64,000 nucleotides of DNA. Source: Candidatus Freyarchaeum deiterrae (GTDB taxonomy: Archaea; Asgardarchaeota; Jordiarchaeia; Jordiarchaeales; Jordiarchaeaceae). A model generated the notes under the pieces. The model saw only the letters and a list, made by a program, of their open reading frames with translations. It was not told where the DNA came from and ran no database searches. Both the position numbers and the translations under genes were made by a program. Shown here one piece after another: positions 4,445-12,337 of this stretch (within the stretch, counting starts at the first letter, position 1; each line of letters opens with the position of its first letter). The stretch is from NCBI GenBank assembly GCA_037305845.1, contig CP147778.1, forward strand, positions 1,344,001-1,408,000, in the 5' to 3' direction.

Positions 4445-6688
4445 TTAGGCAAGGTAGCTCAGACTAAGCTTCTCACGCTTACCCACAAGCTTTTGCTGAA
4501 TCTCTTCGTACTGTTTAATCATCTCTGGAGTAATACTTGCAGTAACCCGGCTGAAAGCCTCATCAAAATGTTTCATACTAACCTCTTCGACGTTCTCGCC
4601 CTTTTCCCGCAGGGCAGCCATACCAGCATCACGACACAAGTTCTCCAAATCCGCACCGCTATAGCCATCAGTACGATCAGCAATACGCTCCAACTTCACA
4701 TCTTTCGCCAACGGCATACCTTTATCCACAGAGTACAACTGAAGAATCCTCAAACGACTTGCACGGTCAGGAGCAGTAACCAAGATTAAACGGTCAAATC
4801 TCCCAGGACGTAGAAGCGCTGGGTCTACAAGGTCTGGACGGTTAGTTGAAGCCACACAAACAACACCCTTCAACTCCTCCAAGCCATCCATCTCAACCAA
4901 AATCTGGTTCAAGACACTCTCATAAACGTGACTACCTTCCCAGGTACCACGACGAGGAGTCAAAGAGTCAAGCTCATCAAAGTAAATTATCGCAGGAGCC
5001 GCGGTACGAGCCTTCCTGAAGACTTCACGAATAGCCTTTTCGGATTCTCCAACCCACTTCGAAAACACTTCTGGTCCTTTGATGGATATGAAGTTTGCTT
5101 CGGATTCTGTGGCTATGGCTTTTGCGAGTAGAGTTTTTCCACAGCCTGGTGGTCCGTGTAGTAACATGCCTCTTGGTGGGCGTATACCTACCTTTTTGAA
5201 TTGTTCTGGGTGTTTTAGTGGCCATTCTACTGCTTCTATTAGTTCTTGTTTTATGTTTTCTAGTCCGCCTATGTCTTCCCATTTCACTCTTGGGATTTCT
5301 AGCATCACTTCTCTTAGTGACGAGGGGTGTACCATTTTTAGTGCTTCTTCAAAGTCGTTTTGGTCTACTACTAGTTTTTCTAGAGTTTCTTGGGGTATGG
5401 TTTCTTCTTCTAGGTTTATTTCAGGTAGGACGATTCTTAGTCGGTTCATGGCGGCTTCTCTTGCTACTGCTGCTAGGTCTGCGCCTACGAATCCGTGTGT
5501 TCTGTCTGCGAGTTCATCTATGTTTGCGTTTTCTGCCAGAGGCATGGCTCTGGTGTGTACTTGGATTATCTCTTTTCTTCCGTTTCTGTCAGGGATTCCT
5601 ATTTCGATTTCTCTGTCGAATCTTCCGGGTCTTCGTAGTGCGGGGTCTAGGGAGTTTGGTCTATTGGTTGCTCCTATTACTATCACTCTTCCTCTTCCTT
5701 TTAGTCCGTCCATCAAGGCTAATAATTGTGCTACTACTCTTCTTTCGACTTCGCCGGTTACTTCTTCCCTTTTGGGTGCTATGCTGTCAAGTTCGTCTAT
5801 GAATATAATTGCGGGGGCGTTTTTCTCGGCTTCTTCGAATATTTCTCTTATTTTTGCTTCTGATTCTCCGTAGAATTTGCTCATGATTTCGGGTCCGTTG
5901 AGTGCGATGAAGTATGCATCGGATTCGTTGGCTACGGCTTTTGCGAGTAATGTTTTTCCGCAGCCTGGTGGTCCGTGTAGAAGTACCCCTTTTGGTGGGT
6001 CGATTCCTAATCTTTGGAAGAGTTCTGGGTGTTTTAGCGGGAGTTCTATCATTTCTCGGACACGCATTATAGCGTCATCTAGTCCACCGATGTCGTCATA
6101 GGTTACTAATGGTATCGCTTTGGCTAATGACGCTGCTTCTGCTAAAAGGTCTACTTTTGTGGTTTCTGTTATTTGGACTATTCCAGCTGGGTTTGTTTGG
6201 GTTACTACTAGTCTTATTTCTCCTAGTGAGAATGGTCTTGCCGGTCCGAAGAAGGGGAAGGCGTCTTCTCTTGTTTGTCGGGGTATTGTTCCCATTATGC
6301 TTATTAGGTCGCCCTTTGTTACGGGTCTGTTGATTAGGGTCCCTTTTAGTGCTTCTTCGTTTGCGCGGAGTCTGCTTCCTTCCTCTGCGGGAGCGAGTAT
6401 TATTTTGGTTGCGGGTTTGGTTTCTGCTTTTCTGACTTTTACGTATTCTCCTAGGCTGCTTCCTGTGTTTTGTCTTACTAGTCCATCCATGCGTATTAGT
6501 CCTGTTCTTCTGTCTTCTGGGGGGCCATACATCACGATTGCGCCTGTTGCTTTGTGTCCGTTTATTTCTATTATGTCTCCTGAGGATACCTCTATTTTTG
6601 ACATTGCATCAGGGTCTATGCGTACTATTCCTCTTCCTGCGCTTCGTCGGTCTATTTCTGCGACTTTTAATTCTATTTCTTGCGGCAT
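4445..6688 (-). CDS. cdc48: CDC48/VCP (p97) family AAA+ ATPase
   Basis: N domain plus two AAA modules (GPPGCGKT twice, [34 protein letters not shown]); Tyr-containing C-terminal tail SYLA. Confidence 0.97.
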
Positions 6689-6719
6689 TGTTTAGATCCT
6701 CCAAATATAATAACTATTA

Positions 6720-7130
6720 TTACCTTTCATTCATTTCTTTTATTAGTGTTTGCAGGCGTTTTAATAATCCGAATTCTTCGTCCATGAAGGATAGTAGGTT
6801 GGATATGGATTCTGTAAAGTATCCTAGCATTTCTTGGAATAGTTTGTCGCCAGAGTTTGTTAAGTAGTAGACATGTCTTTCTGGTCCTCTCTCTCCTTCG
6901 GGATGGAAAGATTCGCTTCTTATCCATCCGTCCACCTGTAAGCGTTTAAGAAGTGGATATATGGTTCCGGGTTTGAGTTCAATTTTTCCGTCGCTTATTG
7001 TATGCATTCTTTTTGAGATTTCTGCTCCGTGCATTGATTCGGTCTTTAGTAATGCGAGCACAATTAGCTCCAGTGTTCCTCGGTTAAGTTCTCTTGTCCA
7101 GAATTGTAATTTCTTTTGAAGTTCATCCAT
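6720..7130 (-). CDS. PadR-family transcriptional regulator
   Basis: RGTLELIVLALL, HGAEI, PGTIYPLLKRL, YYLTNSG; 31 bp upstream of cdc48. Confidence 0.9.
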   Translation of the reverse strand: MDELQKKLQFWTRELNRGTLELIVLALLKTESMHGAEISKRMHTISDGKIELKPGTIYPLLKRLQVDGWIRSESFHPEGERGPERHVYYLTNSGDKLFQEMLGYFTESISNLLSFMDEEFGLLKRLQTLIKEMNER

Positions 7131-7177
7131 ATTTTAGCCTGCCAAGATTTTTGTTAGTAGATTATTGTTATGTGCTG

Positions 7178-7220
7178 CAATATATAGCATGACTATGCAT
7201 TGAGCGGCGTTATATAAGTT
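7178..7220 (-). promoter_or_regulatory. padR-cdc48 promoter: TATA box plus palindromic candidate operator
   Basis: TTATATAA at about 7210-7217; caatatatag-N5-ctatgcattg inverted repeat (8/10 match) at 7178-7202. Confidence 0.55.
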
Positions 7221-10636: not shown

Positions 10637-10712
10637 TACTAATCACCAAATTATTATTCTTAATGAATTCATACCTTGCAGTATTTATTAACCTTCGTGG
10701 ATTAAGAAATGG

Positions 10713-11471
10713 TTATTCAGCGCTTTGAAGGCATTGTTTTATAATTTTTAACTCTGATTCACTCAGGTTGTCTTTAATTTTGTTAAGGGATTGTTTAGCT
10801 GCTTTGAGGGAGCCATCACAAATGGCTTTGCTCAGAGTGGCTAGTTCACGATTTTCATCTAGAATATTATTTTTTTCGCATATTTTTAAAGCTCTATCCG
10901 AATTTTTAATGGCATCTTCTCTATTAGAAATAGCAAAGTTACACATCGATGCCCATGCCAGATTAGCTGCTACATAACCATAATCTTTTTCTTCTAGCAA
11001 CATTTCAGCGTATTCTAGATAATTTTGAGCCGCTAATGTAAAAAAATTCTTACAAGCATTCGAGTTGTGAAGAGCCTTGTTGGTTATTGCTGCTTCGCTG
11101 TAAAGGAGCGCCGCGGATGCGAGATTGCCTGCAGTAGTCATTTTTTCTCCTTGAGCGGCGTAGATTTCTGCGGCTTCTCTCATGAATTTTTTAAACGCCT
11201 CGTCATTTCCAAGATTCTTATGACATTGAGCGATGCCTTCGGAATCCATAGCTACTGAGACGGCATAGTTTAGCTTTTTATGATGTTTGCTGGCTTCCGA
11301 ATAACATGTTATGGCTGTTTTATAGTCTTTAAATTTAGAGTAGCAGTCGCCCGCTTCTTTCAATTTATCTGCAGCCTTCTCGATAAATTCTTGACCAGCA
11401 ACAGTGCCAGTGGCTTGTGATTCATAATTCCTTGCTTTGTTAAGCATCGCTTCACAATCTTTTTCGTTCAC
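10713..11471 (-). CDS. Alpha-SNAP (NSF attachment protein)-like helical protein
   Basis: EKAADKLKEAGDCYSKFKDYKTAITCYSEASKHHKKL resembles alpha-SNAP N-terminal helices. Confidence 0.65.
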   Translation of the reverse strand: MNEKDCEAMLNKARNYESQATGTVAGQEFIEKAADKLKEAGDCYSKFKDYKTAITCYSEASKHHKKLNYAVSVAMDSEGIAQCHKNLGNDEAFKKFMREAAEIYAAQGEKMTTAGNLASAALLYSEAAITNKALHNSNACKNFFTLAAQNYLEYAEMLLEEKDYGYVAANLAWASMCNFAISNREDAIKNSDRALKICEKNNILDENRELATLSKAICDGSLKAAKQSLNKIKDNLSESELKIIKQCLQSAE

Positions 11472-11662
11472 AGCTTTCCCACCGAGAACGCTCTACAATC
11501 TAAATACAACTTTGCTAACTTATATGTTTTGAGGAATCAACAATTATCATCATCATCATCATCTTTAAGAAGAATGTTTTCTAATAATAATTTTCCATTT
11601 TATTTCTAAGCTTGCGGAGGCATCATAATTTAAAGTATCATCTTGGTAGCGTTATGATTATT

Positions 11663-12337
11663 TTATTTTGTGTTACTTTTCGCAATAGTGAAGCAATTTT
11701 CAACAAGTCGTGTGTATTCATAGTATTGTGTTTCTCCAAAATAATCTTTGGAGAGTTTTTCTTGAAATTTTACCCATTGAATTTTTGCTTTTTCCAATGT
11801 TCCCTGAAGAAGCGCCCCACAGGACTTTGCCAACTCCCGCCTCCATATTCTTATTCTTTTTGTTTGGGCTAAATCTACGGCTTTCATGGCGAGGTTTTCA
11901 GCAAATTTTCTGTCTCCTAGGAGGAAACTGCAAAAAGAAGCCCAGCTGTACTCAGAAATTGAGGATTCGATTAATGAAAGCCTTCGCTTTTTACCACTCT
12001 GGTTTACTGCCAGATTCTCCTCAGCCGCATTCACGTGCATCTTTACAGATTCCGAGAGATTTTCTACGAATTTTTCATTATTGCCAACTCCACGGTAGTA
12101 AGAAGCGAAGCCACTATACACCAGAGCGATATACTCCTTCTTATTCAAGTGTTCGGTTAGTACCTGAAGGGCCTTTTTATAGCAATCAAAAGAGCTCACC
12201 AAATCACTGGATTCTCTAAAAAAACATCCTGCCCGAATGTATCTCAGAAAAGCCCCACTGTAATCATTACTCTTTACATGCTCTCTGGCATCATTCATGT
12301 ATTCTAATGCGGTTTTCTCTGCGATCATTGAAAACAC
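11663..12337 (-). CDS. SNAP/TPR-like helical protein, paralog of 10713-11471
   Basis: YIRAGCFF...FDCYKKAL; shares WASxC and RELA...GxLxxAK motifs with its neighbour. Confidence 0.65.
   Translation of the reverse strand: MFSMIAEKTALEYMNDAREHVKSNDYSGAFLRYIRAGCFFRESSDLVSSFDCYKKALQVLTEHLNKKEYIALVYSGFASYYRGVGNNEKFVENLSESVKMHVNAAEENLAVNQSGKKRRLSLIESSISEYSWASFCSFLLGDRKFAENLAMKAVDLAQTKRIRIWRRELAKSCGALLQGTLEKAKIQWVKFQEKLSKDYFGETQYYEYTRLVENCFTIAKSNTK

Follow-up and report, generated by a model that had tools for sequence, protein, structure and literature searches.

Four genes next to a cdc48 gene in the genome of Candidatus Freyarchaeum deiterrae encode proteins, here called A, B, C and D, that are probably soluble, protein-binding scaffolds with SNAP-like repeats and a task other than SNARE recycling, and that stand near cdc48 through inheritance of a gene block. 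They lie in the window that we analysed, a stretch of 64,000 nucleotides. SNAP is a eukaryotic membrane-fusion helper, and an initial annotation of this DNA had read the cluster as a possible SNAP-AAA module for membrane-fusion recycling. That they are dedicated cofactors of Cdc48 is unlikely, a role in SNARE recycling is highly improbable, and there is little here to back a Cdc48 adaptor with a part in membrane fusion. The features of the locus are as follows.

4445-6688, minus strand: cdc48 (747 aa; archaeal VAT/p97-type AAA+ ATPase, N-D1-D2)
6720-7130, minus strand: PadR-family regulator (PF03551, E = 8e-18)
7402-8358, plus strand: protein A (318 aa from ATG; PF14938, 25.3 bits; SNAP-type helical hairpins)
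8582-9283, plus strand: DUF7523 and ACT-domain protein (PF13840, E = 9e-14; PF24367, E = 7e-11)
9371-10636, minus strand: protein B (421 aa; helical domain, Pro/Glu linker, winged helix, zinc ribbon)
9377-9448, minus strand: C4 zinc ribbon of B (CxxC...CxxC; PF13240, E = 2e-4)
9590-9703, minus strand: PCI-type winged helix core of B (aa 312-349; PF01399)
10289-10618, minus strand: shared ~110-aa domain in B (aa 7-116; long hairpins and three-helix cap)
10713-11471, minus strand: protein C (252 aa; 12-helix solenoid)
10719-11048, minus strand: shared ~110-aa domain in C (aa 142-251)
11388-11405, minus strand: TVAGQE loop of C, between helices 1 and 2
11663-12337, minus strand: protein D (224 aa; 221 aa from the likely start at 12328)
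12625-15426, plus strand: argG and argH (recognised by sequence motifs; divergent from D)

Gene content of the locus

A, B, C and D are all genuine genes. Orthologs of A begin at the position of the ATG at 7402, which gives the 318-aa form; an alternative TTG start at 7369 would give 329 aa. The true start of D is probably 12328, its orthologs being 221 aa long. B, C and D are co-oriented and A is on the opposite strand; A and the ACT-domain gene, both on the plus strand, stand between B/C/D and cdc48, and cdc48 is outside the transcription unit of B, C and D. Also within the cluster are the PadR gene and the ACT-domain gene, whose product is probably an amino-acid-sensing regulator. A promoter scan at the locus, limited to promoters of bacterial type, gave none above shuffles.

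Paralogy and domain layout

B, C and D have in common a helical domain of about 110 aa, which stands at the C-terminal end of C and D but at the N-terminal end of B, an arrangement that the initial annotation had recognised and attributed to tandem paralogy. Searches against all 9004 ORFs of the genome bear this out: residues 13-114 of B match residues 149-250 of C (E = 3e-5) and C matches D (E = 1e-8), the similarity between B and D being transitive only, via C. The motifs that had been given for the domain in all three proteins, WASxC and RELA, are present in C and D but are replaced in B by LAGYYS and HHYLFA. The domain is absent from A, which has only the hairpin type in common with C (HHalign 90%). 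In a tree of the shared domain, the B, C, D, stand-alone, Thorarchaeia and Bathyarchaeia sequences form separate groups, the branching order among groups not being fixed.

The first ~190 residues of A are conserved and contain SNAP-type hairpins, and its C-terminal part is variable; A aligns with the Bathyarchaeia family over that family's N-terminal half (HHalign 97.7%). The model of C is all-helical, with 12 helices (pLDDT 96, pTM 0.90). Conservation of C is concentrated in its N-terminal hairpins, with 32%, 28%, 19% and 4% of positions invariant in successive quarters from the N- to the C-terminus. Its last 52 residues are the least conserved, with two invariant positions (E240, and L248 inside a helix); C terminates with its last helix, and the tails vary among orthologs. 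The TVAGQE loop is invariant in C orthologs of both families of the order, and is not found in the Thorarchaeia homologs. D is a paralog of C that occurs at the locus only in the window's own genus and is missing from the block in the second family of the order. A sequence scan of the proteins found no transmembrane stretch.

B consists of the shared helical domain, a disordered linker, a PCI-type winged helix and a C4 zinc ribbon, a layout that rules it out as a SNAP; the original description of all four proteins as helical hairpins does not hold for B, most of which is not helical. The linker is Pro/Glu-rich and ~190 aa long here, varies from 50 to 190 residues among B orthologs, and has pLDDT < 50 in the model of a B ortholog (pTM 0.45). 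The zinc ribbon cysteines (CxxC...CxxC) are invariant in B orthologs. The winged helix scores 20.1 and 22.5 bits against PF01399 (cut-off 22), and a feature search with the winged helix and zinc ribbon gave a best value of 0.76.

Likeness to SNAPs and to TPR superhelices

C is the most SNAP-like of the four proteins, and the earlier statement that it follows the alpha-SNAP pattern has support beyond the quoted peptide, which is present: a Foldseek search with C ranks Sec17 first (E = 9e-8), and language-model features place it with SNAP clusters (0.95), all ten best matches sharing the SNAP family or clan. The description of all four as alpha-SNAP-like was too broad, because against PF14938 (gathering cut-off 25 bits) A reaches 25.3 bits but C only 18.4, and B and D have no match. 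In this genome 17 ORFs match PF14938, nine of them above the cut-off and several better than A or C, and the family also matches in 8 of 14 control genomes, bacteria included. Ten of the 12 C orthologs match it (best E = 1e-9), six match PF10602 (RPN7), and all of them match TPR families of Pfam.

Profiles of the wider family put Sec17, gamma-SNAP and alpha-SNAP on top in searches of the PDB (E = 2e-8), on the SNAP N-terminal hairpins, with matches to Sec17 33-184 and gamma-SNAP 35-114. Independent Thorarchaeia and Bathyarchaeia profiles also have SNAPs as the top natural proteins (Sec17, E = 1.7e-8 over 163 positions), and the shared-domain profile matches gamma-SNAP with E = 9e-8, as against 3e-4 for the next chain, aligning with its residues 50-114 and 130-216. 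Taken alone, the shared domain has its best structural alignments with residues 20-108 of Sec17 (Z = 10.5) and 1-109 of gamma-SNAP (Z = 10.1), values that TPRs equal, and full-length structural alignments of C with SNAPs reach both C-termini.

The archaeal family and the SNAP family (alpha-, beta- and gamma-SNAP and Sec17; PF14938; PDB 1QQE, 2IFU, 3J96 and 9NLZ) are alike in their long Ala/Tyr-rich helical hairpins, in size (245-295 aa in the archaeal wider family, with ~230 residues aligning end to end) and in having helices 1 and 2 joined by a conserved loop, although the archaeal loop is without aromatics. The superhelical shape of SNAPs differs from that of the C model (TM 0.34, rmsd 12-15 Å), and the archaeal cap may lack a specific counterpart in their C-terminal bundle. 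Whole-chain superposition of the C model on Sec17, alpha-SNAP and gamma-SNAP gives TM 0.32-0.40 (the full range being covered by Sec17) and rmsd 11-16 Å. TPR superhelices with long repeats (LGN/Pins, kinesin light chain, Rap, MalT-type and bacterial CHAT-TPR proteins) have comparable Z-scores and better whole-shape TM, the best whole-shape matches of the model being bacterial TPR proteins (TM 0.51-0.57); but the three-helix cap is the archaeal family's own, and the richer family profiles favour SNAP over natural TPR proteins. As modelled, C contains a SNAP-type N-terminal sheet of long helical hairpins and has an overall shape nearer to TPR superhelices than to SNAP.

As regards ancestry, which is separate from function, there is a substantial chance, somewhat short of even, that the SNAP likeness is convergence or TPR-superfamily background, with no closer kinship than to LGN- or MalT-type TPR proteins. 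A profile made from C only ranks consensus TPR, kinesin light chain and LGN above SNAP; VIA scores for C are tied (TPR chain 16.0, gamma-SNAP 15.9, LGN 15.8) with rmsd 12-13 Å to SNAPs; a designed repeat protein scores like alpha-SNAP on the merged family profile; and no eukaryotic SNAP was among the inspected matches from a search of 1.8 billion proteins. The bacterial TPR proteins at the top of the whole-shape matches and the PF14938 matches in control genomes agree with this. The independent Thorarchaeia and Bathyarchaeia profiles, the lead of gamma-SNAP over the next chain, and the ten best feature matches all speak for closer kinship with SNAPs.

Relatives and gene order

Single-sequence searches with C or B reach their own order only, and the shared-domain profile reaches the wider family. 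In Thorarchaeia and in some Bathyarchaeia the family is represented by single full-length members, which means that it is not Asgard-only; C matches Thorarchaeia at 97.5% over 172 columns and Bathyarchaeia at 99% over 241 columns, and these two match each other at 98%. Among 151 Asgard genomes, full-length shared-domain matches (E < 1e-9) are confined to this order and the Thorarchaeia family. A search with a single Bathyarchaeia protein gave two Bathyarchaeota loci. That Bathyarchaeia have members suggests either that the SNAP-type repeat predates the Asgard group or that it has moved sideways.

Gene order is retained only within the order, where cdc48, A, the ACT gene, B, C, argG and argH form a conserved seven-gene block with three strand switches; the flanking blocks shared by the two families are shorter, with two to three genes only. 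The order cdc48-A-ACT-B-C occurs in both families and is tied to one cdc48 ortholog of the three. A is divergently oriented to cdc48, head-to-head with it in both families and 120-170 bp away in the second, and the block keeps argG, argH and the ACT gene as faithfully as cdc48. The PadR gene is at this position only in the window's own family and is absent in the second, and in one relative a TnpB gene is inserted between B and C. Seven Thorarchaeia loci and five Bathyarchaeia contexts have no cdc48 within ~10 kb; in two Thorarchaeia genomes the distance from the family member to the closest cdc48 is 52 and 73 kb. Because 17 ORFs match PF14938, the chance of one such locus lying near one of the three cdc48 genes is 13-23%. 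The proximity of A-D to cdc48 is probably due to the intact inheritance of the seven-gene block within one order.

Cdc48 and SNARE content of the genome

The cdc48 product has CDC48_N, CDC48_2 and two AAA modules and scores 1059 bits against TIGR01243 (cut-off 803); its best solved relatives are VAT (835 bits) and p97 (682 bits). Its N-D1-D2 layout with two intact ATPase modules is the same as in archaeal Cdc48/VAT (Thermoplasma VAT, PDB 5G4F), with nothing unusual, and the C-terminal tail motif L-x-L-S/T-Y-L/M-A/V is kept across the order. The genome has three full-length cdc48 paralogs, this one included. We considered the ATPase as a candidate NSF/Sec18 and rejected it as VAT/p97-type, the other full-length relatives in the genome being two closer Cdc48 paralogs.

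In the complete one-contig genome, a SNARE search with PF00957, PF05739, PF12352 and PF00804 found none near cut-off, though a very divergent SNARE could escape it. Tail-anchored coiled coils taken as SNARE candidates were mostly shadow ORFs, and the one plausible protein is a JAMM protease. A Pfam search of the cluster proteins matched no Cdc48-binding domain family.

Possible functions

Fold, paralogy, range and domain layout of the family are firm. As scaffolds, A, B, C and D would be built of long Ala/Tyr-rich hairpins like the SNAP N-terminal sheet, closed by a three-helix cap, and duplication would have enlarged the family in Jordarchaeales/Freyarchaeia. C and its duplicate D may grip a specific protein partner through the conserved N-terminal hairpins and the TVAGQE loop. 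B may act as a flexible tether, with a helical head that binds one partner, perhaps C, and a winged helix and zinc ribbon that bind another past the linker of 50-190 aa. SNARE recycling would not be performed by any of the four. The all-helical model of C, the absence of a transmembrane stretch, the mutual matches across the three groups, the relatives unlinked to cdc48, the unrelated genes and strand switches of the block, the sizeable odds of chance proximity, and the genome's lack of a SNARE by Pfam search and coiled-coil scan all speak for this explanation. Other observations fit it less well: a seven-gene block longer than its flanking blocks may point to selection for linkage, the head-to-head arrangement of A and cdc48 recurs in both families, and the pairing of B with C is suggested only by adjacency, which the TnpB gene interrupts in one relative.

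The conserved order and the divergent A-cdc48 pair could also mean that A, C or B are order-specific cofactors in protein quality control that bring clients or complexes to this Cdc48 paralog to be unfolded, a task unconnected with membrane fusion. The adaptor-like layout of B would suit such a role, as would the cooperation of archaeal Cdc48 with the 20S proteasome (PMC5543420). We think it doubtful, since cdc48 is in another transcription unit than B, C and D, the block keeps the arg and ACT genes equally well, the relatives, few in number, are not independent of one another, the Thorarchaeia and Bathyarchaeia homologs are unlinked to cdc48, and the Pfam search found no Cdc48-binding domain family. 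Less probable still is a split PCI-type complex, a proto-lid or proto-signalosome in which the solenoids supply the repeats and B the winged helix, acting with a JAMM protease. PCI proteins (Rpn6, Rpn7, CSN1-4 and eIF3c; PF01399) have helical hairpins and then a PCI-type winged helix, as in B, whose winged helix has CSN2, Rpn7, CSN4 and eIF3c as shape neighbours over ~60 residues and whose best Foldseek rows are COP9 signalosome subunits, weakly (E = 0.02). C resembles the Rpn6/CSN1 solenoid, its alignments reaching Z = 13.4 for a 19S lid chain and Z = 13.0 for CSN1; half of its orthologs match RPN7, and JAMM genes are present in the genome. However, in PCI proteins the helical bundle is packed directly on the winged helix, whereas in B the long low-confidence linker parts them and a zinc ribbon follows; A, C and D have no winged helix; and the JAMM genes are unlinked to the cluster. 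PCI rings need several subunits, whereas the genome has two PCI-like matches.

Least probable by far is a true proto-SNAP module, in which the proteins would coat a helical bundle of SNARE type and bring in Cdc48 to dismantle it; for this genome that idea is mostly refuted. Foldseek, language-model features and family profiles all rank SNAP highest among known relatives, and the TVAGQE loop aligns with the SNAP N-terminal hydrophobic loop, which penetrates the membrane (PMC5643095), but the archaeal loop has one valine and no aromatic residues. The C-terminal tail leucine of SNAP, L294, stimulates NSF (PMC2139964), and in the ortholog alignment an acidic tail with penultimate leucine is absent from C, whose end is its least conserved part. 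The shared domain maps to the SNAP N-terminal hairpins, the whole-shape agreement with Sec17 is low, and strong shared-domain matches in Asgard genomes are as narrow as described above. A preprint proposes that archaeal Cdc48 may have disassembled Heimdall SNAREs, but it reports SNARE-like genes only in Heimdallarchaeota (10.64898/2026.10.19.760048), and none was found in this genome. With loop and tail missing, a VAT/p97-type ATPase and linkage to cdc48 lost outside the order, the proposed module for membrane-fusion recycling is not supported. The refutation named at the outset, generic TPR or PCI solenoids as best structural matches and no conserved linkage to cdc48, is half borne out: beyond the order the linkage fails, while the structural matches are split between SNAP for the local repeats and TPR for the global shape.

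As to where SNAP and NSF came from, reports of SNAREs in archaea are confined to Heimdallarchaeota, and a machine that would disassemble them there is so far a proposal (10.64898/2026.10.19.760048); in the literature searched we found no description of an archaeal SNAP homolog. It is conceivable, if quite improbable, that the family in Jordarchaeales, Thorarchaeia and Bathyarchaeia is the prokaryotic sister of SNAPs and that at least one Freyarchaeia member is already a Cdc48 adaptor for non-SNARE clients, in which case the SNAP-AAA partnership would predate SNAREs and NSF. The SNAP-type repeat, being present in Bathyarchaeia, has less value as a eukaryotic signature; with SNAPs as its best solved relatives, the family is a concrete outgroup for the origin of SNAP and NSF.

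Layout of the gene cluster

The host genome is a single contig of 3,576,204 bases; a complete Freyarchaeia genome, Ca. Freyarchaeum deiterrae, has been reported (PMC11291895), and close homologs carry the names Freyarchaeota or Jordarchaeaceae. The cluster is laid out as follows.

Genes of the cluster (window coordinates, strand)
4445-6688, -, cdc48, leftmost in the cluster
6720-7130, -, PadR gene, between cdc48 and A
7402-8358, +, gene A
8582-9283, +, ACT-domain gene, between A and B
9371-10636, -, gene B
10713-11471, -, gene C
11663-12337, -, gene D
right of D, +, argG and argH

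Gene A is divergent from cdc48, and because the ACT gene is convergent with B, C and D, a transcript common to these three genes and cdc48 is impossible. At 12625-19791 we recognised from sequence a group of genes for arginine synthesis that includes a LysW-type carrier set (argG, argH, lysW, lysX, argB-like, lysK-like and carbamoyltransferase genes); the ACT gene may regulate them.

A domain shared by B, C and D

Residues 149-250 of C are matched by residues 13-114 of B, and D matches C, in both cases well above chance. In the host genome, a profile of this ~110-aa shared domain scored >110 bits with B, C, D and one more protein that stands alone elsewhere (111-119 aa), and found no further region of that quality. 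The initial annotation had grouped four helical-repeat genes, and the domain does unite three of them, but A lacks its cap and has only the hairpin type in common with the others. The motifs offered for the domain are present in C and D but absent from B, which is also more than a helical-repeat protein: behind its shared domain come a Pro/Glu linker (variable, ~50-190 residues long), then a PCI-type winged helix and lastly a C4 zinc ribbon.

The stand-alone protein (G000:C1:2027139-2027498, +; L014:1474-1806) consists of the shared domain alone and is kept across the genus. Another Freyarchaeia paralog (P0043; L046:1504-1839, -), with a ~120-aa N-terminal domain (no Pfam match) before the shared domain, clusters with B in the tree and was not found in the host genome. 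The genome's sole other PCI-like winged helix is at aa 170-215 of a 491-aa protein (window 41369-42844, -) with a repetitive Pro/Val/Lys/Glu linker.

Local similarity to SNAP

The model of C has 12 helices (pLDDT 96). Sec17 chains rank first in Foldseek (E 9e-8), with LGN behind (2e-5), and language-model features cluster C with SNAP at 0.95. Over the whole chain, the predicted model superposes on Sec17 with a TM of only ~0.34 and an rmsd near 15 A, and bacterial TPR proteins match its whole shape best (TM 0.51-0.57). By VIA, gamma-SNAP (Z 15.9, rmsd 12.8, 231 aligned) ties with a TPR chain (Z 16.0, rmsd 7.9, 189 aligned) and with LGN (Z 15.8, rmsd 6.7, 181 aligned). By these comparisons, C is SNAP-like locally, not globally.

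A C-only profile favours TPRs. With relatives included, gamma-SNAP is the shared-domain profile's top natural PDB match (E 9e-8), as is alpha-SNAP for the Thorarchaeia profile (E 2e-3) and Sec17 for the Bathyarchaeia profile (E 1.7e-8). These family-profile matches map to the N-terminal hairpins of SNAP, and the best alignment of the shared domain is with Sec17 20-108 rather than with SNAP's C-terminal bundle. PF14938 is permissive, matching 17 host-genome ORFs (nine above cut-off) and also 8 of 14 control genomes. Asgard proteomes are rich in alpha-solenoids, which are prone to convergence (10.64898/2026.10.28.762692). We lean towards a kinship of the family nearer to SNAP than to other TPRs.

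SNAP contacts membranes via an N-terminal hydrophobic loop, SNAREs via its concave face and NSF via its C-terminus (PMC5643095), and its leucine 294 is required for NSF stimulation (PMC2139964). Whereas SNAP's membrane loop is hydrophobic, the aligned loop of C is TVAGQE, invariant and not hydrophobic, and unlike SNAP, C has no acidic C-terminal tail; 32% of the positions in its first quarter are invariant, against 4% of the last 52. In the host genome, neither four SNARE Pfam families nor a tail-anchored coiled-coil scan detected a SNARE, which agrees with the reported confinement of SNARE-like genes to Heimdallarchaeota (10.64898/2026.10.19.760048). The cdc48 product scores 1059 bits against TIGR01243, its top solved relatives are VAT and p97, and judged by these matches it is an ordinary archaeal Cdc48. 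The proposed SNAP-AAA membrane-fusion module is therefore not upheld: the local likeness to SNAP stands, but not the global shape, the working parts or the SNAREs. This is an undescribed archaeal family bearing SNAP-type repeats and, by the features that define the SNAP family, outside it.

Distribution of the family

The shared-domain profile also found a single ~245-aa protein in 26/26 genomes of one Asgard family, named Thorarchaeota, and ~290-aa Bathyarchaeia proteins (7 of the 251 genomes searched in that phylum). HHalign matches the own-order, Thorarchaeia and Bathyarchaeia groups to one another along most of each protein (97.5-99%); judging from these alignments, the family extends beyond Asgard. 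At the Thorarchaeia loci (L080-L086) the homolog is always tail-to-tail with a ~415-aa protein of similar hairpins and then a beta-rich part. A 243-aa helical-repeat gene in the window (31676-32407, -), with TPR matches and a weak MIT match, was rejected as a family member.

Linkage to cdc48 and possible roles

The gene order cdc48-A-ACT-B-C-argG-argH is conserved in each of the order's two families, whereas D and PadR occupy this position only in the own genus; in one relative (G007) a TnpB gene interrupts the block between the orthologs of C and B. TnpB-like genes were recognised by sequence at window 1030-2235 (+) and L023:11106-12248. The flanks keep blocks of only two to three genes, and the greater length of this block is the main argument for a functional tie to cdc48; as linkage evidence the block is limited by the arginine genes inside it, three strand switches and the few related genomes. 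Linkage to cdc48 holds across the order but not beyond: cdc48 is absent within ~10 kb at seven Thorarchaeia loci and five Bathyarchaeia contexts, and two Thorarchaeia genomes have their closest copy 52 and 73 kb away. The chance of one SNAP-match/cdc48 pair within 5-10 kb is 13-23%, assuming ~14 independent SNAP-match loci and three cdc48 genes.

Proteins A-D are soluble solenoids, C with a conserved N-terminal surface and B bipartite. We think it fairly probable that C and D have a specific protein partner, which they would grip through that surface, and that B tethers two partners across its variable linker. The block within the order is what mainly speaks for Cdc48 cofactors acting there in protein quality control, and the separate Thorarchaeia and Bathyarchaeia loci speak against it; we regard this role as unlikely. 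Components of a split PCI-type complex, to which the winged helix of B would point, seem more doubtful still. A true proto-SNAP acting on SNAREs would account for the Foldseek ranking, but with the SNAP loop and tail missing and no SNARE detected it is very improbable.

Other genes

Outside the window, a 228-aa gene (G000:C1:2249290-2249976, -) encodes a zinc ribbon at the N-terminus joined to a Cdc48 N domain, directly upstream of and co-oriented with a second full cdc48 paralog; as a candidate Cdc48 adaptor or regulator, its product has a more direct claim than the solenoids. The product of G000:C1:2046425-2047087 (+; L122:3426-4088) is apparently a tail-anchored deubiquitinase-like protein, in which a JAMM/MPN protease (PF01398, E 9e-19) precedes a coiled coil and, at the C-terminus, a transmembrane helix. 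The window contains a JAMM/MPN gene (27832-28287, -), a two-repeat gelsolin gene (44546-45151, +) and a 1203-aa Gly/Thr/Asn-rich repetitive protein (37112-40723, -), without a Pfam match, that has hydrophobic segments at its N- and C-termini and is probably a surface protein. The stretch at 54000-62000, with uncharacterised co-oriented genes and a GC content of 31-33% vs about 40%, is likely a recently acquired island.
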